From Syntrophaceae bacterium UBA1062 (GTDB taxonomy: Bacteria > Desulfobacterota > Desulfomonilia > UBA1062): 62,492 nt of DNA. The DNA is taken from NCBI GenBank assembly GCA_002316295.1, contig DCDF01000240.1:1-62492 (forward strand). The letters run 5' to 3'. How positions within the stretch are numbered: position 1 is the stretch's first letter; every line of letters starts with the position of its first letter. Positions 10,598 to 28,966 of the stretch are shown here, piece by piece. The position numbers were made by a program, and so were the translations under genes. Under the pieces are notes generated by a model, which was not told the origin of the DNA, ran no database searches, and saw only the letters and a list, made by a program, of their open reading frames with translations.

Positions 10598-11482
10598 ATG
10601 AGTGGAAGCGAGAAGGCGAACCCCGATCTTCAGACAATCATCAGGCAATGGCTGAAGACAGGAAGCCCATCAGGGGCGGAGACTGAGCCTGGCAGCGGCG
10701 AACGTTCCTCCGAGCAAGGACAGAAAGCGCAGGCTGAACGGCTTTCGAAAGACGCCTACTTTTCCATGATGAGAACCTTCCAGGCGGTCTCATCGGCCAT
10801 GAGCGAGCCGCCGGTCCTCGACGCCCTCTTCCGCAGTGCGAACATTCTTCCGGATATCGTGTCCACCTTTGTCATCACAGGGTTGAAAGGATATTTCGCC
10901 CTCCATCAGCAGGTCATCGACAAGATGGGGAAAATTGGAAGCCATACAGACGCGTACAGCTTCGACAACATTGATCAGGAAGCCCTGCGCGTCTGGTCCG
11001 AGATTTACAAGAATGAGATCAGGCAGTACTTCAACGTGCCTCAGCTGGGCCTGAGCAGATTTTACCAGGAAAGAGTCAACCAGGCTCTCGACAAGTTCAA
11101 TATCTTCAGCTCTGCTCTGGCCGAATTTCTTCAGCTGCTCTCACTGCCTTTTGAAAAATCCTTTCGCGTTCTGCAGGAAAAGATCGAAGATCTCACCAGA
11201 ACCGGGAGCCTCCCGGAAGATTCCCGTGGGTATTATCAGATGTGGGTGAAAATCCTCGAAGGTCATTTCATGACCCTGTTCCAGTCGCCCGAGTACAACA
11301 AGTCTCTCGGCGAGACGATGACGGCGCTGGAGGACTACATCTCCGCCCGCAACAGGATTCTTCAGGACATGCTCCAGTCGATGCCTGTGCCGACGAGAAA
11401 GGAGATGGATGATCTTTATAAGGAAATATATCTCCTGAAAAAGAAGGTCCGCGATCTCGAAAAGGCGAACGGGAAGCAGTAG
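10598..11482 (+). CDS. phaE: class III PHA synthase subunit PhaE
   Basis: 294 aa. Conserved PhaE tail YQMWVKILEGHF...PEYNKSLGE...PVPTRKEMDDLYKEIYLLKKKVRDLEK. 16 nt upstream of phaC. Confidence 0.8.
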   Translation: MSGSEKANPDLQTIIRQWLKTGSPSGAETEPGSGERSSEQGQKAQAERLSKDAYFSMMRTFQAVSSAMSEPPVLDALFRSANILPDIVSTFVITGLKGYFALHQQVIDKMGKIGSHTDAYSFDNIDQEALRVWSEIYKNEIRQYFNVPQLGLSRFYQERVNQALDKFNIFSSALAEFLQLLSLPFEKSFRVLQEKIEDLTRTGSLPEDSRGYYQMWVKILEGHFMTLFQSPEYNKSLGETMTALEDYISARNRILQDMLQSMPVPTRKEMDDLYKEIYLLKKKVRDLEKANGKQ

Positions 11483-11498
11483 CAACAAAGGAGAAGCC

Positions 11499-12764
11499 AT
11501 GAACAAGCCGAAAATACCTGTGGATATCATTCTGAAACATCTTGCCGAGCAGGCGGAGGTGAGCCGGGAGCGGGTGCAGAAGGCGACCGATGTCCTGCTT
11601 GGCAACCTCGATACCGATATCGCAGCCACCCCGTACGAGGTGGTGTATGAGGAAGACCGTGTCAAACTCAAACACTATGCACGGTCTCCGAAGGCGGAAG
11701 ACGCCATGCAGACCCCTCTTCTGGTGGTCTACGCGCTCATCAACCGCGAGACTATGCTCGATCTCCAGCCGGAACGAAGCGTCGTGAAAAGCTTACTGGC
11801 AGACGGGGTCAATCTCTACATGGTGGACTGGGGATACCCCACCTATAAGGACAAGTTCCTCACCATAGACGATCATGTCAACGGCTATATGGACAATATC
11901 GTCGATTTCATCCTGAAGCGGGAAAAGGTCGAAAAGATCAACCTCATGGGAATCTGCATGGGGGGAACCTTCAGCGTCATGTATTCCGCCCTTCATCCCC
12001 ACAAGGTCAAAAACCTGGTGACCACGGTATGTCCTACGAACTTCGATACGAGGCAGGGGCTGCTGCACATCTGGATGAAGTGGATGGATGTGGACAAAAT
12101 GATCGACACCTTCGGCAACATGCCCGGGGACCTCATGAATTTCGGGTTTCTCCTGCTCAATCCGGCACGCCTCATGATAGACAAGTATATCGGATTCCTG
12201 GAAAATATGGACAACAAGGCCTTTGTCGAGAATTTCGTCAGGATGGAGAAATGGATTTTCGACAGCCCCGACGTGCCGGGTGAGACCTTCCGGCAGTTCA
12301 CCAAGGATCTCTACCAGAACAATCTCCTGATCGAGAACAGGCTTCACATCGGCGGCAGACATGTAGATCTCCGCAATATCACCATGCCGATGCTCAACAT
12401 ATACGCCCGGTACGACCATCTGGTGCCTCCGGAGGCGGCCGAAAAGATCACCAGTGTGGTAGGGAGCACCGACACCGAGAACGTGTGCCTCGAGACCGGA
12501 CATATCGGTATCTACGTCAGCTCCAAGACGCAGAAGGAGTTCGCTCCGAAAATCATCAGCTGGCTCAGGGAAAGAGAAGGCCGGCGTGAACCCGTGAACC
12601 AGGCCGGCCTGTACCGGAGAAAGTCCGTGCCGAAAAGGGCGCGTTCTTCCATAAGAAACTCATCTCTCAGCACCAAAAGAAAGAAGGAGTTGAGCCATGC
12701 CGGAAAGAAAAGACTTTTTTTCAACAATTTGCAAGGTGAGCAGGGCGTTCGGGACCACCCTTGA
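11499..12764 (+). CDS. phaC: class III PHA synthase catalytic subunit PhaC with basic C-terminal extension
   Basis: 421 aa. Lipase-box Cys GICMGG, Asp (ARYDHLVP), His (ETGHIGIY). The canonical end ...KIISWL is followed by 65 extra residues. Confidence 0.9.
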   Translation: MNKPKIPVDIILKHLAEQAEVSRERVQKATDVLLGNLDTDIAATPYEVVYEEDRVKLKHYARSPKAEDAMQTPLLVVYALINRETMLDLQPERSVVKSLLADGVNLYMVDWGYPTYKDKFLTIDDHVNGYMDNIVDFILKREKVEKINLMGICMGGTFSVMYSALHPHKVKNLVTTVCPTNFDTRQGLLHIWMKWMDVDKMIDTFGNMPGDLMNFGFLLLNPARLMIDKYIGFLENMDNKAFVENFVRMEKWIFDSPDVPGETFRQFTKDLYQNNLLIENRLHIGGRHVDLRNITMPMLNIYARYDHLVPPEAAEKITSVVGSTDTENVCLETGHIGIYVSSKTQKEFAPKIISWLREREGRREPVNQAGLYRRKSVPKRARSSIRNSSLSTKRKKELSHAGKKRLFFNNLQGEQGVRDHP

Positions 12765-13749
12765 GAAGGAGGACCTGCTGGACCTGATCGTCCAGAGCGC
12801 CATCGAAACCATGAATGGAAAGGCTGCAAGCCTTTTCATGCAGGATGAAGACCGGAAGAGCCCGTATTACTTCCCCATCGCGCAGAAAGGGCTCTCCAGC
12901 AACTATCTCCACATGGAGCCGAAAGAGGCGAAACGCGCCGCCGACGAGATTCTCAAGAAGGGATACATTGCCATACACGATGCAACCAAGGATACCCGGG
13001 TCCAGAACCACGCACTGAAAAAGGCCGAGGGAATAGCCTCCATTCTCGTCGTGCCGGTAATGGTCAGAAACACCGTGATCGGTGTTCTCGGACTGTACAC
13101 CGCAACACCCAGACGATTTACCGATGAGGAGATCGAGTTCCTCACCGCACTGGCCGAGCAGGGAGGAATGGCTATCGAGCATGCGAGGCTCGTGGAGCAG
13201 ATCCGCAGGAACACCGATCTCTTCCTCAACCTCTCGACGAATATCAACTCCAGCTTGGACATCAGAGACATCCTGGACATTCTCACCGTTGACGTTGCGA
13301 GGGCCTTCGGGGTAAAGGCCGTCTCCGTACGCCTCCTGGACAGGGAGAAGAAGATCCTTCAGCTGGTGAGCAGCTACGGTCTGAGCGAGAAATATCTCAA
13401 GAAGGGGCCGGTCTATGCGGAGAAGAGCATCGCCGAGGCACTCAAAGGAAATATCGTGGCGATCCGCGACGCCTCCACGGATGAGGGAGTGCAGTACAAG
13501 AACGAGAAAAAAGCGGAGGGGATCATGTCGATTCTCTGTGTGCCCATCAAGGCCATGAATGAGATTATCGGCGTGCTCAGGCTCTACAGCGGAGTCCCCC
13601 GGGTGTTTACCGAAGACGAGATCAAGCTGGCTACCGCCATAGCCAACCAGGGGGGTCTGGCGATTCATAATGCATCGCTGTATCTTATGCTCAAGGAGGA
13701 CATCAAGGATCTCAGGGATGATATCTGGAGCCACCGGTTGTGGTTCTGA
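12697..13749 (+). CDS. tandem GAF-domain protein (no output domain)
   Basis: 350 aa. Internal duplication: SILVVPVMVRNTVIGVLGLYTATPRRFTDEEIEFLTALAEQGGMAIEHARL versus SILCVPIKAMNEIIGVLRLYSGVPRVFTEDEIKLATAIANQGGLAIHNASL. AAGGAG RBS 7 nt upstream. Overlaps the phaC tail by 68 nt. Confidence 0.85.
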   Translation: MPERKDFFSTICKVSRAFGTTLEKEDLLDLIVQSAIETMNGKAASLFMQDEDRKSPYYFPIAQKGLSSNYLHMEPKEAKRAADEILKKGYIAIHDATKDTRVQNHALKKAEGIASILVVPVMVRNTVIGVLGLYTATPRRFTDEEIEFLTALAEQGGMAIEHARLVEQIRRNTDLFLNLSTNINSSLDIRDILDILTVDVARAFGVKAVSVRLLDREKKILQLVSSYGLSEKYLKKGPVYAEKSIAEALKGNIVAIRDASTDEGVQYKNEKKAEGIMSILCVPIKAMNEIIGVLRLYSGVPRVFTEDEIKLATAIANQGGLAIHNASLYLMLKEDIKDLRDDIWSHRLWF

Positions 13750-13849
13750 TGATTCCGGAATGCATTCTCTTCCCGCATGCGGCTTCTTCCTGTCCACCCG
13801 TTGCTCTTAAGGCCGGCGTGGACGGAAATTGTACAAAAGGAGTTTCCAT

Positions 13850-14278
13850 ATGCCAGGAAAAACCATATCCGAGATGAAGATTGGTGATTACGCGGAATTC
13901 GCCAAAACAATCGCCGAGGCCGATATCTATCTGTTTGCAGGTCTTACCGGAGATCTCAACCCGGCTCATGTCAACGAAGAATATGCCAGGGAAACCTTTT
14001 TCAAGACACGTATCGCCCACGGGATTCTCCAGGCCGGCTTCATTTCCGCAGCGATCGGGATGCAGCTGCCCGGCCCCGGAACCATCTACATCCGACAGGA
14101 GCTCAATTTCCTGGCTCCTGTCCGGATCGGTGATACCGTCACCGCCCGCGTGGAAGTCGCCGAGATAAACGCGGAGAAAAACCGTGTCGTGCTCAAGACC
14201 ACGTGCAGAAACCAGAACCAGGAGACGGTTCTGGACGGGCAAGCCCTGGTGAGCCCTCCCAAGTCGCCGAAAAAATAG
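13850..14278 (+). CDS. phaJ: (R)-specific enoyl-CoA hydratase, MaoC/hot-dog family
   Basis: Hydratase-2 motif LFAGLTGDLNPAHV. The ATG at 13850 with an AAAGGAG RBS is preferred over the TTG at 13829. Confidence 0.85.
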   Translation: MPGKTISEMKIGDYAEFAKTIAEADIYLFAGLTGDLNPAHVNEEYARETFFKTRIAHGILQAGFISAAIGMQLPGPGTIYIRQELNFLAPVRIGDTVTARVEVAEINAEKNRVVLKTTCRNQNQETVLDGQALVSPPKSPKK

Positions 14279-14384
14279 GCTTGGCGCACCCGCCCGCTAC
14301 ACTGCTGTCCGTCGGTCACCCATATGTGATGACAGAGATGCGCACCGCTGTTCAGCACACAAAGGGCGACATGCTCGAACCAGG

Positions 14385-14957
14385 CTATGACTTGCTTCTG
14401 GTCCGCGATCCCTTCTTGGTTGCCGCCTCCGCAGCCTTGTGCGTTTCTTCAGTGCCCGCGGTTTCCTGGAAGATCTTTGAAAAACTGATCATCATATCCT
14501 GAAACTGTTGCGTCTGCTTCTTCATCAGGTTCTGAAATGCACTGATGCCTTCTCCCTGCAGAGAGAGCCTCTCGTCAAGGACACTCCGGAGACGGCCGAT
14601 TTCTTCCTCCTGGCGCTGTGTCTTTTCCTTGAGCTCCTCGTAGTCCTTGAGCAGAGCCTGATATTCCGACTGAAGGGGGTAGTTCCAGGGGCAGCTCATA
14701 AGCGAGAGGAATCCACCCGTGAAAGATTTTTGAAAATCTTCTGCGGCCTTGATGGAGGCGCTGAAATATTCCGGGAGATCACGGAGGAAGAAATCCATGC
14801 CCCACCACTTGGCGTACATTTCGAAAAGATCCTGAAAACTTCCCAGGTCGCCTTTCATCATACGGGAAAAGTCTTCCATGAGCTTCTGGCCCCGCGCGGC
14901 GTTGAGGAACATGTTTCCCCAGAGCTCAAACGCCTGTGTCTGCGTCTGCATGATCAT
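14385..14957 (-). CDS. short PhaE-like coiled-coil partner of the second PHA synthase
   Basis: 190 aa. FEMYAKWWGMDFFLRDLPEYFSASIKAAEDF aligns by eye with PhaE YQMWVKILEGHFMTLFQSPEYNKSLGETMTALEDY and is followed by a coiled coil (EYQALLKDYEELKEKTQRQEEEIGRL). Overlaps or abuts the upstream gene stop. The alternative ATG at 14951 has better AGGAGG spacing. Confidence 0.5.
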   Translation of the reverse strand: MIMQTQTQAFELWGNMFLNAARGQKLMEDFSRMMKGDLGSFQDLFEMYAKWWGMDFFLRDLPEYFSASIKAAEDFQKSFTGGFLSLMSCPWNYPLQSEYQALLKDYEELKEKTQRQEEEIGRLRSVLDERLSLQGEGISAFQNLMKKQTQQFQDMMISFSKIFQETAGTEETHKAAEAATKKGSRTRSKS

Positions 14958-16531
14958 CCTCCTTTGTACGATGGATCGCTCTCCAGCTGGAAAAGAACCG
15001 GACCGCGGTAATTCTTCTCTCCGAACCGCTTGTCCAGTGCGAATTCAGATTTCGGATTGGACCAGGACGTGGCGATGGCAAGATGGCCCTTGGGGAATTC
15101 ACTCACTTCGACATCGATGAAGTCCCGGGGAGCAAGCGCCGTTTCCTTCTCCACCAAGTCATCCCTCTCACCGTAGCAGATGAGCCACTTCACTCCCTTC
15201 TGCGGCAGGCGGTGGAGATCCAGCTTCCTGCCGAAAAGGCGTACCGGCAGAACCCCTTCTGTGGTGATGGGGATGTTGTATGAACGGAAGCTCATCTTGG
15301 TGACCTCAAGAGGCAGGTCGGTCCGTTCATAGGAGAGCCAGTAGTTGATCGCCAGAGCGGTCTTGTTGAATCCATGCTTTGCCTTTCCGTCGGCTGAAAG
15401 CATGACCATGTCCCGATAGAAGCTGATGAGCGGAAACTCGTCGTCGATCGCCCTGAGCTTGTACACCCATCCCATCAGCTTCCCGTCGCCCACCCTGTTC
15501 CCGTTGGGCAAAGTCTTGGTGCCGTAGGCGAGATCGTTGAACCGCGGGGGGAGATTGTTCAGAAATGTGGCAAGCCCCGGGCTCCTGGTCCCGTCCATGG
15601 GGGAGACGCAGGTGATGAGCAAATCCACGAGATTGTCCAGCTCGCCCGAGAGAATCCCGCACAGAGAAGTAAATCCGCCCTGGCAGTATCCACACAGGGT
15701 TACCGGCTTTCCGTGCTCTTTTTTGACGATCTCGGAAAAGTAGGCGGTGTCTCGGACGTCGTCTTCGCCGGTCATGACCTGGAATGCGGGGGTCGTCCAG
15801 ATGTTCTTGGCGATCCGTATGTAGGTCGGTATCCCCCTGTTGGCGAAGGCGTGCACGAAACTCTTGTTGTCTCCGGGGAGAAAGGCGAGGATATTCGTGC
15901 CCAGCACAAACGGGGGGATAATGACGACCGGTTTGCCGTTTTTCCTGACCGATACGTCCGTACGGGAAGGAAGCACCTGGTAGAGCATGAACCTCTCGGT
16001 TTCCCCCGCTTTTCTGTAGCCTTCCTGATCGAAGTGAAATCCGTATTCGCTCCTGATGTTGCGGATGGCCTTGGGATACTCGTACACGACCTTTTCCATG
16101 AGGGCTTCGTGCTCGGAAAGCAGAGACTGAATGTCTTTGCCGTCCCTGGAAAAGACCGTATTGATCCACGCGTCTGTGATTTCTCCGTATCGAGGGAGGT
16201 AGTACTGACCGATAGTGGAGATGCTTGCTTTCAGGGCCCTCTGAGCAAGCTGCACATTCAGCAGGAGCAGCTTGGTGTAGTCCTGGATTGTCTGGGCGGG
16301 AGGGATTTCGAGGATTTTCTTTCTTTCGACAGCCTGGAAATAGCTCGATGAAATGACGAAGGCATCGATAAAGTCATGGAAGTAACGCAGCAGTCCGTTG
16401 AGGTAAACCTGCCCTTCCTTCCCTTGCGCCAGCGAGGCGAGCCACAGTTTCTCCACAGTATCGCTCAAACGCTCCAGGGGCTCCGTCTGAAACATCCGAT
16501 CGTACAGGTACTGGTTTTCGTCAGAAGCCAT
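14954..16531 (-). CDS. PHA synthase-like alpha/beta hydrolase with long N-terminal domain (PhaC2)
   Basis: Lipase-box Cys GYCQGG, Asp (YGERDDLV), His (FPKGHLAI), and PVVIIPPFVLGTNILAFLP resembling the PhaC N-domain. The ATG at 16531 follows AGGAGG+5 nt; the longest ORF starts at 16564. Confidence 0.8.
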   Translation of the reverse strand: MASDENQYLYDRMFQTEPLERLSDTVEKLWLASLAQGKEGQVYLNGLLRYFHDFIDAFVISSSYFQAVERKKILEIPPAQTIQDYTKLLLLNVQLAQRALKASISTIGQYYLPRYGEITDAWINTVFSRDGKDIQSLLSEHEALMEKVVYEYPKAIRNIRSEYGFHFDQEGYRKAGETERFMLYQVLPSRTDVSVRKNGKPVVIIPPFVLGTNILAFLPGDNKSFVHAFANRGIPTYIRIAKNIWTTPAFQVMTGEDDVRDTAYFSEIVKKEHGKPVTLCGYCQGGFTSLCGILSGELDNLVDLLITCVSPMDGTRSPGLATFLNNLPPRFNDLAYGTKTLPNGNRVGDGKLMGWVYKLRAIDDEFPLISFYRDMVMLSADGKAKHGFNKTALAINYWLSYERTDLPLEVTKMSFRSYNIPITTEGVLPVRLFGRKLDLHRLPQKGVKWLICYGERDDLVEKETALAPRDFIDVEVSEFPKGHLAIATSWSNPKSEFALDKRFGEKNYRGPVLFQLESDPSYKGG

Positions 16532-16564
16532 TGTCCCCTCCTGTGCGCGGCCGGGGCCGGTCAT

Positions 16565-16840
16565 TTATTTTTTCGATTTTTCCGCGGCGCTGAAATACTC
16601 GTCCACCTTTCGAAAATTCTCATCCACGGATTTCTTGAAATCATCTCTTCCCTTCTTGTAGGCGCCGATCCATTGATTCAGGACACTTTTGCCTTCTTCG
16701 GGGAGCCAGTTCGCCTGATCGAGGAAGGTCTTGGCCATCTTTTCCGTTTGCTCCTGAATCAACACCATTGCGTTGAAGCTGTTGTCGAAAGAGGCCTTCT
16801 GAAAATCAATCACCTGTCTTACCATCTGTTTCTGATCCAT
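16565..16840 (-). CDS. small phasin-like protein, paralog 1 (YKKGRDDFKK family)
   Basis: 91 aa, directly upstream of PhaC2. About half its residues are identical to the products of 17456..17836 and 17873..18151. Confidence 0.6.
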   Translation of the reverse strand: MDQKQMVRQVIDFQKASFDNSFNAMVLIQEQTEKMAKTFLDQANWLPEEGKSVLNQWIGAYKKGRDDFKKSVDENFRKVDEYFSAAEKSKK

Positions 16841-17214
16841 GCTGCTTCCTCCTTGGAATGGAATATCTCCCGCGGGGCATCTGTGTACCGCGCTTCACAG
16901 CCGGGACACAGCCGCCCCCGGGGCGTGAGCCGGATGGGGATTGGTCGGGATATCCATGAATCCGTCATCCGATGCATTCTTGAATAATACGATCCGTCTC
17001 GGTTCTTTCAAGATTCACCTGCTTTCAGCAGTTTTCCCGGCCGATATTCGAAGGCATGATTCGGCTGCTCGGTGATTGCGATCAACACCTCCGCAGGCGA
17101 TGCCTCTCCGATCCGCCCGTGCGGTATCACGATCCGGCTCCAGAGAGACGGCATGCCGGAGAGCCTGGGTAATTCTCCGATATTCCTTGACTTCAATCTC
17201 TTCCCTTGTCCCGA

Positions 17215-17380
17215 TCAGGTTATACTTCGAGTGAGCTTGCATGTCGTCGTCCTCTGTCGTCCCCGTACATCGGCGGCATGAAAACAGAGCGTCAAGCTCT
17301 TATTCGACCTCACTTCCTCCGGGATATCTGCAATTGCAAGAGCTTCAAGGCGATCCAGGAAAATATCAAAACAGTGATAT
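17215..17380 (-). pseudogene. possible decayed copy of the phasin-like family
   Basis: One reverse frame gives FDIFLDRLEALAIADIPEEVRSNKSLTL (compare FFLDRVPWMPEESKQLIL). A shifted frame gives MYGDDRGRR (compare MYKKGRDDLKR). No intact ORF or start codon. Confidence 0.25.
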
Positions 17381-17455
17381 TTTGGAGGATTTTCCGCGGC
17401 GCCGCCCGCCTGTGACCATTTTTCTTGAACGACCGGCAGACAGGCGGCTCTTCCC

Positions 17456-17836
17456 CTACTTTTCCGAACTCTTCTCCGCAGCTTTTCTCGATTCCGACGC
17501 AGCCCTGGAAGCCTGCTGAGCACTGCGTCTGGTTGTCTGCTGCGCCTGCTGGGCGGCACGCTCAGTAGCTTCGACTGTGGAAACCAGGTACGACTCCATT
17601 TTGTCATACCCGTCGTCCACGGCTCTCTTCAGATCGTCCCTGCCCTTTTTGTACATATTCCCCCACTCCAGGATTAACTGTTTGCTTTCCTCGGGCATCC
17701 ACGGGACCCTGTCAAGGAAGAAGCTGACGGACTTTTCCGCCTGGTCCTGGATAGTGACCATACTCCTGTACACGTTATCAAAGGCGCTTTTCTGAAAATC
17801 GAACGCCTGCTTGACCATGGTTTTCTGATCCATCAC
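17456..17836 (-). CDS. small phasin-like protein, paralog 2, with Ala/Gln/Ser-rich tail
   Basis: 126 aa. Shares DFQKSAFDN...IQDQAEK...FLD...WMPEESK...MYKKGRDDLKRAVDDGY with its paralogs. Confidence 0.6.
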   Translation of the reverse strand: MMDQKTMVKQAFDFQKSAFDNVYRSMVTIQDQAEKSVSFFLDRVPWMPEESKQLILEWGNMYKKGRDDLKRAVDDGYDKMESYLVSTVEATERAAQQAQQTTRRSAQQASRAASESRKAAEKSSEK

Positions 17837-17872
17837 CGGTCCCCCTTTCTCAAGTGCCCATCTATCGTCACA

Positions 17873-18151
17873 CTACCGTCCCACTCTGCCGAGCGAGGAA
17901 GTGAGATAGCCGCCGAGGTGATCAAATCCGTCATCTACGGCCTTCTTGAAGTCATCTCTGCCTTTTTTGTACATGCTCACCCATTCACTCAGAACGCCCT
18001 TGCTCTCCGATGGAAACCACCCTGTCTGATCCACGAAGGCATTGAAGACTTTCTCGGCCTGGTCCTGCATGGTAACGAGCGTCTCATAACCGTTGTCGAA
18101 GGCGGCTTTCTGCAAATCCACCATTTGTAAGGCCATGCTTTTCATGTCCAT
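17873..18151 (-). CDS. small phasin-like protein, paralog 3
   Basis: 92 aa. DLQKAAFDN...MQDQAEK...WFPSESK...MYKKGRDDFKKAVDDGF. AAGGGGGA RBS. 36 nt upstream of paralog 2. Confidence 0.6.
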   Translation of the reverse strand: MDMKSMALQMVDLQKAAFDNGYETLVTMQDQAEKVFNAFVDQTGWFPSESKGVLSEWVSMYKKGRDDFKKAVDDGFDHLGGYLTSSLGRVGR

Positions 18152-18192
18152 GATTCAATCCCCCTTTGCTTGAAAGCATTGATCTCAAACCA

Positions 18193-18220
18193 ATAATAGG
18201 GCTCCATGGTCAATTGTCAA
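18193..18220 (-). promoter_or_regulatory. candidate sigma-70 promoter of the phasin-like genes
   Basis: The reverse strand reads TTGACA-N16-TATTAT, about 40 nt upstream of the start codon at 18151. Confidence 0.45.
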
Positions 18221-18231
18221 GATAATTTTTG

Positions 18232-18241
18232 CATTGCAACA
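18232..18241. promoter_or_regulatory. CATTGCAACA motif, copy 1 (candidate PhaR operator)
   Basis: Lies just upstream of the -35 of the phasin promoter. An inverted copy is at 18353..18362. Confidence 0.3.
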
Positions 18242-18352
18242 TGCTGGATGAATCGCCTTTTTGCTGACAGAGATTGTATCTACCAGATTATATTAATATA
18301 TAATTATGTTCTTCCACCGTCTCAAATCGATTCCGTTGCCGAAGCAGAAAAT

Positions 18353-18362
18353 TGTTGCAATG
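18353..18362. promoter_or_regulatory. TGTTGCAATG motif, inverted copy 2 (candidate PhaR operator)
   Basis: Exact reverse complement of 18232..18241. About 135 nt upstream of phaR. Confidence 0.3.
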
Positions 18363-18495
18363 TAACATTCGTGTGGCGTTTGAGGTTTCCCTGTGATATA
18401 CAGACATGGACCGCCGGAGAAGAGAAGGCTTCTTGCCCGGCAACAACGCCGGGACAACCCTTTCCTTCGAGGGAAAGTTCTATCGGGGTGTATGA

Positions 18496-18966
18496 ATGGC
18501 TGACAGAGAAAAACTCAGGCTGAAAAAATACGGGAACCGGCGCCTGTATGATACGGCCCGGAGCACCTACGTCACGCTGAATCAGGTCGCGGATATCATC
18601 AAGCAGGGAACGGACGTGGAGGTCGTCGACGCGAAGACACAGGAAGATGTGACGGCATTTATTCTCACCCAGATCGTGCTGGAGCAGGCACGGAGAAAAA
18701 ACGCCCTTCTCCCCGTGGAGCTTCTCCATCTGATTATCCGCTATGGCGAAAACCTGCTGCAGGAATTTTTCCAGAAATATCTCGAGCAGACGATCAATGG
18801 GTATCTCCAGTTCAAGAGGTCCATGGACGAGCAGTTCAGCAAATGGATCGATATGCAGCTCAACTATTCGGATATGGCGCAGAAAACGTTTTCCGGACTG
18901 ACTCAATTGCAGAACATCTTCGGCCGGTCCCGGCAGACTCCGGGATCGAAAAACGACAAAGACTGA
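18496..18966 (+). CDS. phaR: PHA synthesis repressor PhaR
   Basis: 156 aa. N-terminal KKYGNRRLYDTARSTYVTLNQVADIIKQG matches the PHB/PHA accumulation regulator DNA-binding domain. Divergent from the phasin-like genes. Confidence 0.9.
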   Translation: MADREKLRLKKYGNRRLYDTARSTYVTLNQVADIIKQGTDVEVVDAKTQEDVTAFILTQIVLEQARRKNALLPVELLHLIIRYGENLLQEFFQKYLEQTINGYLQFKRSMDEQFSKWIDMQLNYSDMAQKTFSGLTQLQNIFGRSRQTPGSKNDKD

Positions 18967-19127
18967 TCCGCGAGCGGCCCCCGGAGCGCCGCCTCCGTTT
19001 ATCACGAGCGAAACCCGGTTCTTGCCTCGGGCCATCCTGAAGCCCGAACCGCCCGGGACACGCACCGACAACGGATCGCCCTCTCAACCATAAGGGCATC
19101 CGGGCCCGGTTTCCCCGTCACGGAGGC

Positions 19128-20204
19128 TCAGCCGGCGGCCGCCAACCCTGTCAAATCGGAAGCGGCTATCCTGCCCTTTATCGAGTACGCGGCCTCTTCG
19201 ACAAAGGCAAGGGCGGCGGGCCATTCGTGCTGCAGCGCTCTTCTGCCCATGAACACCGAGATGTGACCGGCCAGAGGAATCACCGCCTTGAAAATCTGGT
19301 CCCTGGGCGTTGAAGCATACAATTCGAGATTATGCACCTGGGGTATGAGGGTGATGTCGTCCCGCTCGCCGGCGAGCAGAGCCAGAGGGCACGATATATT
19401 CTGAAGGTCTACGTATTCACAGAGAACCTCCAGCGTGCCCTTGATGAGCCGGTTCTGCATGAAGAGCTTCTCCACTGCCTCGAGGTACCACCGTCCGGAG
19501 ATATCCTGGGTATACTCGTACCAGCGGCTGAATGTTTTTGTCCTCTTCAGATAATTCTCGTCCCTCACGTGTATCCAGAGGTTCAGATAGTCCCGGACGA
19601 ACCGGTCGTAGGCGTTCATCATCTTCCACCCCATGAGCATGAGGTCGCCGGACATGTTCCCCCCGCCGCAGTTTACGAGATACTGATAATACATGAGAGG
19701 AAGTGTATTCACGATATCCTGTATCTTCCCACCTCCGGCCGTGAAATCGATCGGAGCCGCGGCCAGCATGAGGGCACGGACATCTCCGGGAAACAGGGCG
19801 GCATAAATCGTGGCGAGCCATCCGCCCTGGCACAGGCCCGCGAGAACAACGGGCGCGCCCGCCTTTTTCACGCAGAGCATGACCTGCTGCACCAGATCGT
19901 CGATGGTCTCTTCTCTCCTGCTGAGCGTGCTCGATTTCCATTCGATTACATACACCGGACGGGCCGTATGCTTGAGGCATGTCTGAACCAGGCTCTGGCC
20001 GGGGGCATAGTCTGCAATGCTCGAATGGTGGCCAGCCTGGGGAGGGACGATCAGGATCGGGTCTCCTGTGCGGTCCTCATCGAATCTCCTCAAGACAACC
20101 GCCTTATCTTCGAAGATTTTCCTGTTCGGCGATATGAACTCCGGTTTTCCACGCGATGATGCGGTCTGAAAGAACTTCATGAGATCTGCATAAGGCGTAT
20201 TCAT
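19128..20204 (-). CDS. Cys-Asp-His alpha/beta hydrolase, PhaC class III-like or Cys-type intracellular PHA depolymerase (PhaZ-like)
   Basis: 358 aa. GLCQGG box, LAGERDDIT, PLAGHISVFMGRR. PPQAGHH and GHxxxFxGRR recall PhaZ-type depolymerases (from memory only). AAGGAG RBS. Confidence 0.75.
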   Translation of the reverse strand: MNTPYADLMKFFQTASSRGKPEFISPNRKIFEDKAVVLRRFDEDRTGDPILIVPPQAGHHSSIADYAPGQSLVQTCLKHTARPVYVIEWKSSTLSRREETIDDLVQQVMLCVKKAGAPVVLAGLCQGGWLATIYAALFPGDVRALMLAAAPIDFTAGGGKIQDIVNTLPLMYYQYLVNCGGGNMSGDLMLMGWKMMNAYDRFVRDYLNLWIHVRDENYLKRTKTFSRWYEYTQDISGRWYLEAVEKLFMQNRLIKGTLEVLCEYVDLQNISCPLALLAGERDDITLIPQVHNLELYASTPRDQIFKAVIPLAGHISVFMGRRALQHEWPAALAFVEEAAYSIKGRIAASDLTGLAAAG

Positions 20205-20524
20205 GGTGCATCTCCTTGGTGTATGAAATTGTGCCTTGCGGCTGGGGAGCGCTGATAAGAACCGATGATCCCGAGAGGGTACGCCGGTGCTGCCCTTGGT
20301 GCTGATACGGGTGCAAAAACAACTCGTTGATGCCCTTTCACGCCTTTCTTATACATCTTTTCCCAGTGCCAGTCCAGGAAGAAGTTAACACTGTAGAAAT
20401 CTTCGATTATCTGAGAATTTCTCGCAATAGGTTTGTGTTCCAACGTGTTGATATTTGTGAGAAATCGAATCCATCTCCATGAAGCGGTCGCCTTCCGGCC
20501 CACCGCCCGTTTTCTTAATTCCAT
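20201..20524 (-). CDS. hypothetical protein, divergent or truncated phasin-like paralog 4
   Basis: 107 aa from the ATG at 20524. SVNFFLDWHWEKMYKKG compares with SVSFFLD...WGNMYKKG in paralog 2. Its stop overlaps the start of the downstream hydrolase (ATGA). Weak RBS; the start is uncertain. Confidence 0.3.
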   Translation of the reverse strand: MELRKRAVGRKATASWRWIRFLTNINTLEHKPIARNSQIIEDFYSVNFFLDWHWEKMYKKGVKGHQRVVFAPVSAPRAAPAYPLGIIGSYQRSPAARHNFIHQGDAP

Positions 20525-20928
20525 CACGAAACAGCTTCCGGTGCGCTCCCTGTCAGGCCCCTGTGATAGATTCCGCAGCGATCTCGGCGATACCCGCTGT
20601 CCGTATCCGGCCTTGCAGTCCCACCGTCTTGACGGCATCGTCCGGCATGCGGCAGCACTGAGGGCGTGAGACCATCAGGGTGACGGCCCCGGTCACCAGC
20701 TCCTCCCTGACGCGGACGCGGCTGGAGAGGCGCATCCGGTCCCGAGCACATCGGTGAAGAATTTGCCTCAACCGCCGCAGCATAGGTTGTTCTGCATGGC
20801 ACAATCCATCTCACGGACCGAAGCCTCTGCATGAGGCCTCCTCTCACCGAGCAGGAATTCTGCCGCCTGATGATGCCTGTCCACGGCTCCGCTGCCTGCG
20901 GACGGGAATCGCTCGAATTTTCTGTTTC

Positions 20929-21846
20929 TTACTTTGCCTTCACGTCACCGGCGAGGAACCCCGGCTCGCCGTATGAGGGGTTCGGATACTTGTAGAAGCC
21001 TTCCTTGGTCTTGAACCCCAGGAGCCCTTTGTCCACATACCCTTTCAGAAAAGCCGCATTCGCCAGGGCCTGTGGATCGCCGGTCTTCCTGGCCCAGTAA
21101 TCGGTAATGGTATAGACCGTGGAGAGCCCGACCTGGTCCATGATGCCGAAGGGTCCGATCGGGGTGTGCATGACGCCCATCCACGAACGGTCGATGTCCT
21201 CGATAGAAGCCACCCCCTTCGATGCCAGAGAGAGCGAGGAGAAGAACAGGCTCGAAAGCATGGTGTTGAACACATAGCCGTTGTTTTCGCGGTTGAGCGT
21301 AATGACGATCTGCCCGATGCTCCTGGCAAACTCGCGGACGAGCTCGGTCACCTCCGGCGCGGTGCCCGGATGGGGCATGACGTCCACCACGCTGGAGGTC
21401 CGGACGTCATGGAAATGCAGGGCCGCGAACTTCTCCGGCCTGCCCGTCTTGTCCGCGATCATGGAGGGAACCAGCATCGATGTGTTGGTCGTGAAGATAG
21501 TCCTCTCCGGACAGAGCTCGTTGAACTGGTTGAATACCCGGGCTTTGACCGCCGGGTCCTCCGGCACGGACTCGCTGATGAAATCGGCGTCGCGGGCGGC
21601 AAGAGCCGGGTCCGAGGTGCCGGAGATGCGCGCCATGATCTCGCCGAGCTGCTCGGGGGCGATACGGCCTGTGGAGACAAACCACGACCCGAGCTTCTGC
21701 ATGCGGCTGATGGATTTGTCCAGGATCTCCTGGGAAATATCGTACATGACCACAGTGTATCCGTGCATTGCACAGGTGAACCCGATCTGCTGGCCCATCG
21801 TCCCTGCACCGAGGATGAGAACGCGCCTGATGTCGGAAAGTTTCAT
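20929..21846 (-). CDS. hbd: 3-hydroxyacyl-CoA (3-hydroxybutyryl-CoA) dehydrogenase
   Basis: 305 aa. Rossmann motif ILGAGTMGQQIG plus the HAD C-terminal domain. Confidence 0.9.
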   Translation of the reverse strand: MKLSDIRRVLILGAGTMGQQIGFTCAMHGYTVVMYDISQEILDKSISRMQKLGSWFVSTGRIAPEQLGEIMARISGTSDPALAARDADFISESVPEDPAVKARVFNQFNELCPERTIFTTNTSMLVPSMIADKTGRPEKFAALHFHDVRTSSVVDVMPHPGTAPEVTELVREFARSIGQIVITLNRENNGYVFNTMLSSLFFSSLSLASKGVASIEDIDRSWMGVMHTPIGPFGIMDQVGLSTVYTITDYWARKTGDPQALANAAFLKGYVDKGLLGFKTKEGFYKYPNPSYGEPGFLAGDVKAK

Positions 21847-28435: not shown

Positions 28436-28966
28436 GTGATCTATTCATATAACGGCAAAACACCGGTCATAGGCGAGGGAACATGGATAGCCCCCAATGC
28501 ATACATCATCGGAGATGTGAGAATCGGCAGCCGGTGCTGGATCGGGCCGAGCGCGGTGATCAGAGGCGATTTCGGAGTCATATCCATCGGTGACGAGACT
28601 GCGGTGGAAGACGGGGTGGTGATTCACACTCCCTCTTCTGTGACCATCGGCCGTGCCGTCATCATCGGCCATCTGGCCCTGGTGCACGGGAGCAGGGTGG
28701 GGGATTGCTCGGTGATCGGGATGCATGCGACCCTGGGAGACAATTCCGTGGTGGGGAGCTGGGCGATCATTGCGGAGCACTCGCTGGTGAAGAAAAACCA
28801 GAACGTTCCGGACTACAAGCTCTACGCAGGCTCTCCCGCCGTGGAAAAGGGCGATGTGAGTGAGAGGTACCGCGAGATCATGGCCTTGGGCAAGCAGATG
28901 TATGTGGAGCTGGCCGAACGGTACCGGACCTCGCTCATTGCAGTGCAACCGCCCGACAGAGAGTGA
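28436..28966 (+). CDS. gamma-carbonic-anhydrase-like / hexapeptide-repeat (PaaY-like) protein
   Basis: GTG at 28436 after GGGAGG. Left-handed beta-helix repeats (IGDVRIGSRCWIGPSAVIRGD...). Confidence 0.85.
   Translation: MIYSYNGKTPVIGEGTWIAPNAYIIGDVRIGSRCWIGPSAVIRGDFGVISIGDETAVEDGVVIHTPSSVTIGRAVIIGHLALVHGSRVGDCSVIGMHATLGDNSVVGSWAIIAEHSLVKKNQNVPDYKLYAGSPAVEKGDVSERYREIMALGKQMYVELAERYRTSLIAVQPPDRE

Follow-up and report, generated by a model that had tools for sequence, protein, structure and literature searches.

Small hairpin proteins encoded beside phaR in Desulfobacterota: candidate phasins of a family without a curated model

Introduction

Phasins govern the number, size and stability of polyhydroxyalkanoate (PHA) granules and have found applications as biosurfactants and affinity tags. 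Four phasin families are recognised in Pfam (PF05597, PF09602, PF09650 and PF09361), and these were defined mainly from aerobic model bacteria (PMC5658603, 2017). PHA storage in anaerobic Desulfobacterota is poorly studied. In this study, we examined three small paralogous genes in a PHA locus of Syntrophaceae bacterium UBA1062, carried on contig DCDF01000240.1 (GCA_002316295.1); the whole stretch that was analysed, positions 1 to 62,492 of the forward strand (62,492 nt), is hereafter called the window. The original prediction for this stretch had taken the products for granule-surface proteins of the phasin type. Our analysis suggests that the three proteins, predicted to fold as small helical hairpins, are probably phasins of a family that has no curated model. 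No paper describing this small-hairpin family was found in the literature on phasins in Desulfobacterota, Syntrophus and sulfate reducers, and the same searches yielded no granule proteomics or fluorescent-fusion results for it.

For the control of phasin genes, the closest described systems are those of Ralstonia eutropha and Sinorhizobium meliloti. The PhaR motif of R. eutropha, YTKNTGCRNYGCANMAR, is experimentally grounded, and one such site lies directly upstream of the −35 of phaP1 (PMC12849132). In S. meliloti, the core of the PhaR motif is YGCRNYGCR, set between AT-rich arms; such boxes stand on either side of the −35 at phaP1 and phaP2, and gel shifts with mutated sites verified that PhaR binds them (PMC12542648).

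Results

The three small genes lie on the minus strand of the window. Paralog 3 (17873..18151, 92 aa) is the first gene of the operon and belongs to the sm3-type orthogroup, paralog 2 (17456..17833, 125 aa) is of the sm2 type, and paralog 1 (16565..16840, 91 aa), which stands immediately upstream of a gene for a PhaC-like enzyme, is of the family-wide "core" type. The open reading frames (ORFs) of the original prediction (16565..16840, 17456..17836 and 17873..18151; 91, 126 and 92 aa) were all present in the ORF list, and only the start of paralog 2 was amended. An exact-sequence look-up showed that public protein sets hold the 125-aa form beginning at the ATG at 17833, and not the 126-aa form beginning at the GTG at 17836; the ATG is therefore probably the start. 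The prediction that the three proteins align end to end with about half of the positions identical was borne out, with pairwise identities of 46–55% (46–48% to the first) and 35 columns invariant in all three. All the motif blocks quoted for them were found, and FDN, Q-x-Q-x-EK, W-x-P-x-E-x-K and YKKGRDD are among the invariant columns. A hidden Markov model (HMM) of the three paralogs, run against the six-frame translation of the window, returned only these three copies (E 1e-50 to 1e-52), the next match having E > 1.

Each paralog is preceded by a strong Shine-Dalgarno sequence, and the exact proteins occur on 67–120 public contigs (120 for paralog 3); NCBI names the window's small proteins "hypothetical protein". 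Against their nearest orthologs, the paralogs showed 0.06–0.13 non-synonymous and 0.63–0.80 synonymous differences per site, giving a dN/dS of about 0.1 or less (0.03–0.10 for paralog 3). The three ORFs are therefore real genes under strong purifying selection.

For the promoter region and the gene order, the window was compared with 31 loci, of which 27 came from a scan of one genome per species and 4 from contig look-ups. The TTGACA-N16-TATTAT promoter proposed for the small-gene operon was found on the minus strand at 18220..18193 (18193..18220 in forward numbering); it is of the sigma-70 type and agrees with the consensus in 11 of 12 positions, and its −35 and −10 are conserved in the window and 21 related loci. 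Alignment of the intergenic regions between phaR and the small genes revealed a palindrome, TTGCANTGCAA, just before the −35. In the window, the PhaR-operator-like palindrome TGTTGCAATGCAA (core TGCAATGCA) occupies 18227..18241 and begins 18 nt before the start of the −35 hexamer. In 15 loci, which extend over up to 16 kb, the exact 11-mer TTGCANTGCAA was found a single time each. In the window and 21 loci, the relaxed core TGCRNYGCA starts 18–20 nt ahead of the −35 TTGAC. A perfect YGCRNYGCR core was present in all 22 phaR-linked intergenic regions, and the first small gene begins 81–112 nt downstream of it (176 nt in one locus). A PhaR operator palindrome (TGCRNYGCA / YGCRNYGCR) is thus present, as a site, next to the −35. 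Two further TGCRNYGCA matches in the window (28939..28947 and 21764..21772), one at the 3′ end of a hexapeptide-transferase ORF and the other inside a 3-hydroxyacyl-CoA dehydrogenase gene, are about as many as chance would produce (roughly 1 per 62 kb).

The window site, ATGTTGCAATGCAAAAA, agrees with the R. eutropha PhaR consensus at 16 of 17 positions and also fits the S. meliloti core. The layout is that of R. eutropha, in which a TGCR-N-YGCA palindrome immediately precedes the −35 of phaP1 and another site belongs to phaR (PMC12849132). The arrangement likewise resembles the AniA/PhaR regulon of S. meliloti, in which a YGCRNYGCR core with AT-rich arms is found beside the −35 of the genes for the phasins PhaP1 and PhaP2 (PMC12542648); its counterpart in the window is TGCAATGCA with A/T-rich flanks, 9 nt before the −35. 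Unlike in S. meliloti, where two boxes flank the −35, the window has one box at the promoter and one nearer phaR, it comes from a different phylum, and its site is a putative PhaR site. The second PhaR-box-like site of the window, TGTTACATTGCAA (18353..18367), has one mismatch to the core and is presumed to serve autoregulation. A second site with 0–1 mismatch was found 23–141 nt from the phaR start in 21 of the 22 phaR-containing intergenic regions. The layout of palindrome and −35 is the classical phasin-promoter arrangement, from which we infer that PhaR binds in the window. The PhaR-operator logic of Alpha- and Betaproteobacteria appears to extend to Desulfobacterota almost unchanged. In locus L005 (2363..2695), phaR has been lost between the hydrolase gene and the small genes; the palindrome is also gone, and the −10 region is kept. 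This joint loss is what one would expect if the palindrome were the PhaR operator.

The gene for PhaR itself (18496..18966, plus strand) is divergent from the small-gene operon, in agreement with the original prediction. Its product, a homolog of the polyhydroxybutyrate-responsive repressor, matched PF07879 at 91 bits and TIGR01848 at 106 bits, just below the cutoff of 109. Convergent with the small-gene operon is a block on the plus strand (10598..14278) that comprises phaE (PF09712, 94 bits), a class III phaC (TIGR01836, 443 bits, above the cutoff), a gene with two GAF domains, and phaJ, which encodes a MaoC domain. Adjoining phaR on its other side is a gene on the minus strand for a 358-aa hydrolase resembling PhaC or PhaZ (19128..20204), with a Cys nucleophile in GLCQGG and matches to TIGR01836 (129 bits), TIGR01849 (70 bits), DUF3141 and PHB_depo_C. 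Genes for a 3-hydroxyacyl-CoA dehydrogenase and a short-chain dehydrogenase/reductase follow past phaR and the hydrolase, so that the small genes are surrounded by genes of PHA synthesis and regulation. The same order recurred among the related loci: phaR, divergent from one to five small genes, which are followed by the 525-aa PhaC-like gene and a 190-aa gene, and then, convergently, by phaJ, the GAF gene, phaC and phaE. Divergent adjacency of phaR and the small genes was observed in 22 of the 26 assessable loci, the exceptions being L005, L018, L028 and L030. The class III phaC ORF (11499..12764) shares its last 68 nt (12697..12764) with the double-GAF gene (12697..13749), an overlap repeated in related loci; the double-GAF protein is a conserved, uncharacterised part of the pha locus.

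The original prediction had proposed structure prediction for amphipathic helical hairpins. AlphaFold2, run with an 89-sequence alignment of the family, returned a confident hairpin of two long helices (residues 3–42 and 48–90; predicted local distance difference test score (pLDDT) of 91, predicted template modelling score of 0.76), with the conserved W-x-P-E-E-G-K motif located at the predicted turn. The whole-helix hydrophobic moments were 0.35–0.46, compared with 0.34–0.40 given for the helices of PhaP1 in a phasin review (PMC5658603). In 18-residue windows, the mean moment was 0.40 against 0.20 in shuffled sequences, and none of 500 shuffles reached 0.40. No membrane-spanning or hydrophobic segments were present in the paralogs, the maximum 19-residue hydropathy being at most 0.64. 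The proteins are thus small, predicted to be mostly alpha-helical and amphipathic, and free of transmembrane segments. A Foldseek search of the model against the PDB retrieved only generic hairpins (LapD2, a Rop variant and Esx proteins) at E ≥ 1.5, and the fold match gives no functional assignment.

As had been noted from the sequence, an Ala/Gln/Ser/Arg-rich tail is carried only by paralog 2 among the three. These C-terminal 37 aa (17456..17566, minus strand), which follow the hairpin domain, are rich in Ala, Gln, Ser, Arg and Thr, of low complexity and mildly basic, with a net charge of about +4. A tail of variable length is retained in every sm2-type ortholog (110–137 aa). It loosely resembles the nucleoid-binding basic tails of PhaF and PhaM, a comparison that is speculative.

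Pfam and NCBIfam were scanned with the three paralogs and 89 diverse members of the family. No family was reached, and the scattered sub-threshold matches involved at most 3 members per family. Among the models for which the original prediction had proposed HMM searches, Phasin (PF05597, gathering threshold 28.8 bits) and PHA_gran_rgn (PF09650) had no match in the three paralogs or the 89 members, and Phasin_2 (PF09361, gathering threshold 24.9 bits) had none in the three paralogs and a single sub-threshold match, at E 0.0038, among the 89 members. PhaP_Bmeg (PF09602) likewise gave no HMM match in either set, nor was there a relevant match in NCBIfam, whose library presumably includes the TIGR phasin models. 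The original prediction had not recognised the motif as that of any phasin family familiar to it, and indeed no Pfam or NCBIfam phasin model matches it. A PDB sequence search with both profiles gave nothing meaningful, the best match being to the C-terminal helix of a transposase at E 0.005, and no confident match to any non-phasin family, well-characterised families included, was found in the Pfam, NCBIfam, PDB sequence and fold searches.

We consider it rather unlikely that the family is a very distant, single-repeat relative of PF09602 or of COG3937 / PF05597, a classification that would be compatible with phasin function. In its favour, profile alignment with hhalign against 13 genuine PF09602 proteins gave a score of 24.9 over 61 columns with a pairwise E of 0.002, a score that none of 60 column shuffles reached (maximum 18.8); the Joint Genome Institute pipeline attached the label "polyhydroxyalkanoate synthesis regulator phasin" (COG3937) to 9 of the 120 listed members; and one of the 89 members had the Phasin_2 match at E 0.004. 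However, the hhalign probability was only 13%, and the reversed-sequence control scored 21.4, so that the PF09602 signal is mostly helical periodicity and composition and homology is not demonstrated. Other members carried unrelated COG names, or none. Representative phasin sequences, validated against Pfam at 53–185 bits (148–152 bits for PhaF and PhaI), scored 13.6–14.8 (the N-terminal part of PhaF, and PhaI) and 12.8–13.5 (R. eutropha PhaP1 and Aeromonas PhaP); these values are close to the mean of 11.4 for shuffled PhaP_Bmeg controls and represent background.

R. eutropha PhaP1 and other PF09361 phasins are, like the proteins described here, small, all-helical and amphipathic, with several paralogs. 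No sequence relationship to PhaP1 is detectable, however, and the latter has 192 aa against 91–92 aa; unlike PhaP1, the present family consists of a single predicted two-helix hairpin and forms a tandem array in an operon with a PhaC-like enzyme. Bacillus PhaP (PF09602) is a helical granule protein from a locus with a two-subunit synthase, as the present proteins would be; it had the best profile–profile score among the phasin families tested, the whole hairpin aligning to its C-terminal half. It differs in its length (160–200 aa), in the low profile probability with a reversed control nearly as high, and in the lack of an HMM match. Pseudomonas PhaF resembles paralog 2 in that an amphipathic helical domain is joined to a basic, Ala-rich tail of low complexity, whereas PhaF and PhaI (PF05597; COG3937) aligned at background level and the tail of paralog 2 lacks AAKP repeats and has a net charge of no more than +4 in its 37 residues. 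In Pseudomonas, control of the phasins lies with PhaD rather than PhaR. PHA_gran_rgn (PF09650), a "putative PHA system protein" of roughly 90 aa, is similar in length and occurs in PHA loci, and differs in the absence of an HMM match noted above.

The original prediction had further suggested that the three genes belong to a rapidly evolving family specific to this lineage. A word-indexed search with a single sequence found only 11 relatives, whereas a profile search over 1.84 billion representatives returned 1208 clusters (50% identity level) at E ≤ 1e-3, of which 590 had E ≤ 1e-10. Members are mostly 85–100 aa long, and some carry a second, partial copy. In all, 77 clear members were found in 32 sources (the 31 loci and the window), with 1–5 tandem copies per locus, and all loci with an informative organism label belong to Desulfomonilia, Syntrophales (Smithella, Syntrophaceae), Desulfobacterales or close relatives. 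This number of clusters and this spread contradict lineage specificity. In a neighbour-joining tree, the three paralogs of the window fell into three separate orthogroups, each common to at least 10 species of metagenome-assembled genomes. Paralog 1 had the top score against the family profile (146 bits). An independent expansion to five copies was observed in locus L021. From these orthogroups and this expansion it follows that the threefold amplification, as read from the sequences, is old and maintained, and neither rapid nor lineage-specific; rapid evolution is also contradicted by the substitution rates given above. Four members of 154–158 aa (P0162-P0165) are natural fusions in which one complete hairpin domain is joined to another copy with most of helix 1 missing, a hint that the hairpins may pack against each other in bundles.

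As the original prediction had stated, the small genes lie directly upstream of a PhaC-like gene. Paralog 1 adjoins the 536-aa ORF of this gene (14954..16564), and the start found in public protein sets gives a 525-aa protein (14954..16531, minus strand); the stop of paralog 1 thus lies 0–33 nt from the enzyme start. The protein consists of a helical N-terminal extension of about 170 aa followed by an alpha/beta-hydrolase core with GYCQGG. It matched TIGR01836 at 25 bits (E 8e-6) and no Pfam domain, and it has the columns for the GxCxGG Cys, the Asp and the His that are common to class III PhaC and the 358-aa paralog. NCBI names it "metal transporter", although multi-pass hydrophobic segments are absent. 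It is probably a misannotated PhaC-like enzyme, which would be the third such enzyme in the locus. An AlphaFold2 model from a 3-sequence alignment had a pLDDT of 41. The last gene of the operon (14385..14957, minus strand) encodes a 190-aa coiled-coil protein, for which the Pfam and NCBIfam scans found no family match and BLASTP found no similarity to PhaE (E 0.38). Wherever a locus reaches far enough, this gene comes after the 525-aa gene, L024 being the one exception; in L021, it comes directly after the five small genes, and the enzyme gene is absent.

This neighbourhood bears on the main functional alternative to the phasin reading. On that view, the small proteins, and chiefly paralog 1, would serve the 525-aa enzyme and the 190-aa protein as accessory subunits or activators dedicated to them, in the role of PhaE, class IV PhaR or PhaM, and would not be a general granule coat. 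A family member stands immediately upstream of the 525-aa gene, on the same strand, in all 22 loci that have this gene, and the trailing 190-aa gene, the close spacing of paralog 1 and the enzyme start, and the retention of the PhaC Cys, Asp and His columns by the enzyme also argue for such a role. Nevertheless, we regard it as distinctly unlikely. The co-occurrence with the neighbouring PhaC-like gene that the original prediction had proposed to examine was found in one direction only: family members occur without the 525-aa gene in six loci (L018, L021 with its five copies, L023, L028, L030 and L031), and therefore any dependence does not run from the small proteins to the enzyme. Moreover, paralogs 2 and 3 are parted from the enzyme by a 615-nt spacer with a promoter-like site of its own, and 3–5 tandem copies are not normal for stoichiometric subunits. 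There is also a small chance that the hairpin protein, the 525-aa enzyme and the 190-aa protein make up an unrecognised PHA polymerase or granule-bound acyltransferase system in Desulfobacterota, in which the enzyme would require the hairpins as partners, for its nucleation or organisation on the polymer, and these would be more than a passive coat.

The 615-nt spacer that separates paralog 2 from paralog 1 gave no profile match in any frame. Its length and sequence differ from one relative to another, and several relatives lack it, their three genes being contiguous. Its conserved part is the putative promoter-like sequence TTGAAA-16-TATTAT upstream of paralog 1 (16984..17011, minus strand, read from 17011 to 16984), which matches 10 of 12 positions and is conserved in L001-L003. 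The original prediction had also noted apparent relics at 17215..17380 and 20201..20524, and neither was upheld by profile, tblastn and blastn searches and comparison with relatives. The first gave no profile match in any frame and only short DNA matches at chance level. The second holds only W-x-K-MYKKG in one frame (0.3 bits), inside a block of about 150 nt (20260..20413, minus strand) that is nearly invariant at the DNA level in the window, L001-L004 and L006, while the neighbouring genes are saturated at synonymous sites. Because of this near-invariance, and because the frame reads MYKEG in relatives and has stops just upstream in three of them, the element is not a decayed paralog. From these comparisons, the block is read as conserved but non-coding; it stands 56–210 nt upstream of the gene for the 358-aa hydrolase and may represent a promoter plus a 5′ untranslated region or an RNA element. 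A promoter-like T(A/G)GAC(G/T)-17-TATAA(A/G) was seen in it by eye. An Rfam scan of 14000..21000 yielded nothing relevant.

Discussion

We think it reasonably probable that the three small proteins, each a predicted soluble hairpin of about 10 kDa, are phasins of a family without a curated model and that they are derepressed when nascent polymer titrates PhaR; PhaR binding, derepression and association with granules are the steps that we infer. Among the readings considered, the granule-surface, phasin-type function put forward originally is the best supported, by the operator palindrome, the amphipathic hairpin and the phaR/phaEC/phaJ synteny across three orders, while the evolutionary part of that proposal was wrong. 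The tandem multi-copy arrays and the natural fused forms fit an abundant structural protein, as expected. Also in favour of the phasin reading are the Joint Genome Institute label given to 9 of the 120 listed members and the lack of a confident match to any non-phasin family in the searches made.

By analogy with R. eutropha and S. meliloti, the divergently encoded PhaR would bind the TGCA-N-TGCA palindrome next to the −35 and repress the operon when no PHA is present. Once the class III PhaEC synthase starts a polymer, PhaR would be titrated onto the nascent granule, the promoter would fire, and the hairpin proteins would cover the hydrophobic polymer surface by the apolar faces of their helices. 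The resulting coat would set granule number and size and keep unrelated proteins off. Paralog 1, presumably co-transcribed with the PhaC-like enzyme and the coiled-coil protein, may recruit or organise them on the granule.

Several points weigh against the phasin reading. One is the strict linkage of paralog 1 to the 525-aa gene described above. The amphipathicity could just reflect the packing of the two helices on each other. Because the PhaR regulon of S. meliloti includes non-phasin genes and reaches far beyond phasins (PMC12542648), a PhaR box alone is no proof of a phasin. Finally, in two loci of the Smithellaceae type (L028, 8001..8591, and L030, 8001..8590), two family members of 97 and 87 aa stand in tandem beside a DUF374 gene, with no PHA gene within 8 kb and no PhaR box at the promoter. 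These pairs point to a subgroup that is regulated in another way and may also differ in its role.

The breadth of the S. meliloti regulon and the Smithellaceae copies outside PHA loci, together with fold searches that give generic helical hairpins only, would also suit members of a PhaR regulon that act off the granule, for example as helical stress, chaperone or storage-state proteins. We judge this quite improbable. In 22 loci, the small genes are found where phaP classically stands, as the first genes on the far side of the divergent promoter region from phaR and within a complete pha locus. The proteins moreover resemble phasins in size, helicity and amphipathicity, and no stress-protein family matches them. 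That the three ORFs are chance or decaying frames, for which nothing speaks beyond their small size and their "hypothetical protein" labels, is ruled out by the dN/dS of about 0.1 or less, the strong Shine-Dalgarno sites, the 590 clusters at E ≤ 1e-10 and the confident fold prediction.

On the phasin reading, the proteins described here would form a sequence family that is new and has no name, while their function and its control by PhaR would be of a well-known kind. The family is large, with about 1200 clusters at 50% identity, and is found in anaerobic Desulfobacterota, among them Desulfomonilia and Syntrophales associated with digesters. With a Pfam or NCBIfam model of the family, hundreds of "hypothetical proteins" would receive testable annotations. 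If the assignment is true, these two-helix phasins of 10 kDa would represent the smallest PHA-binding module in nature and could be considered for use as a minimal tag.

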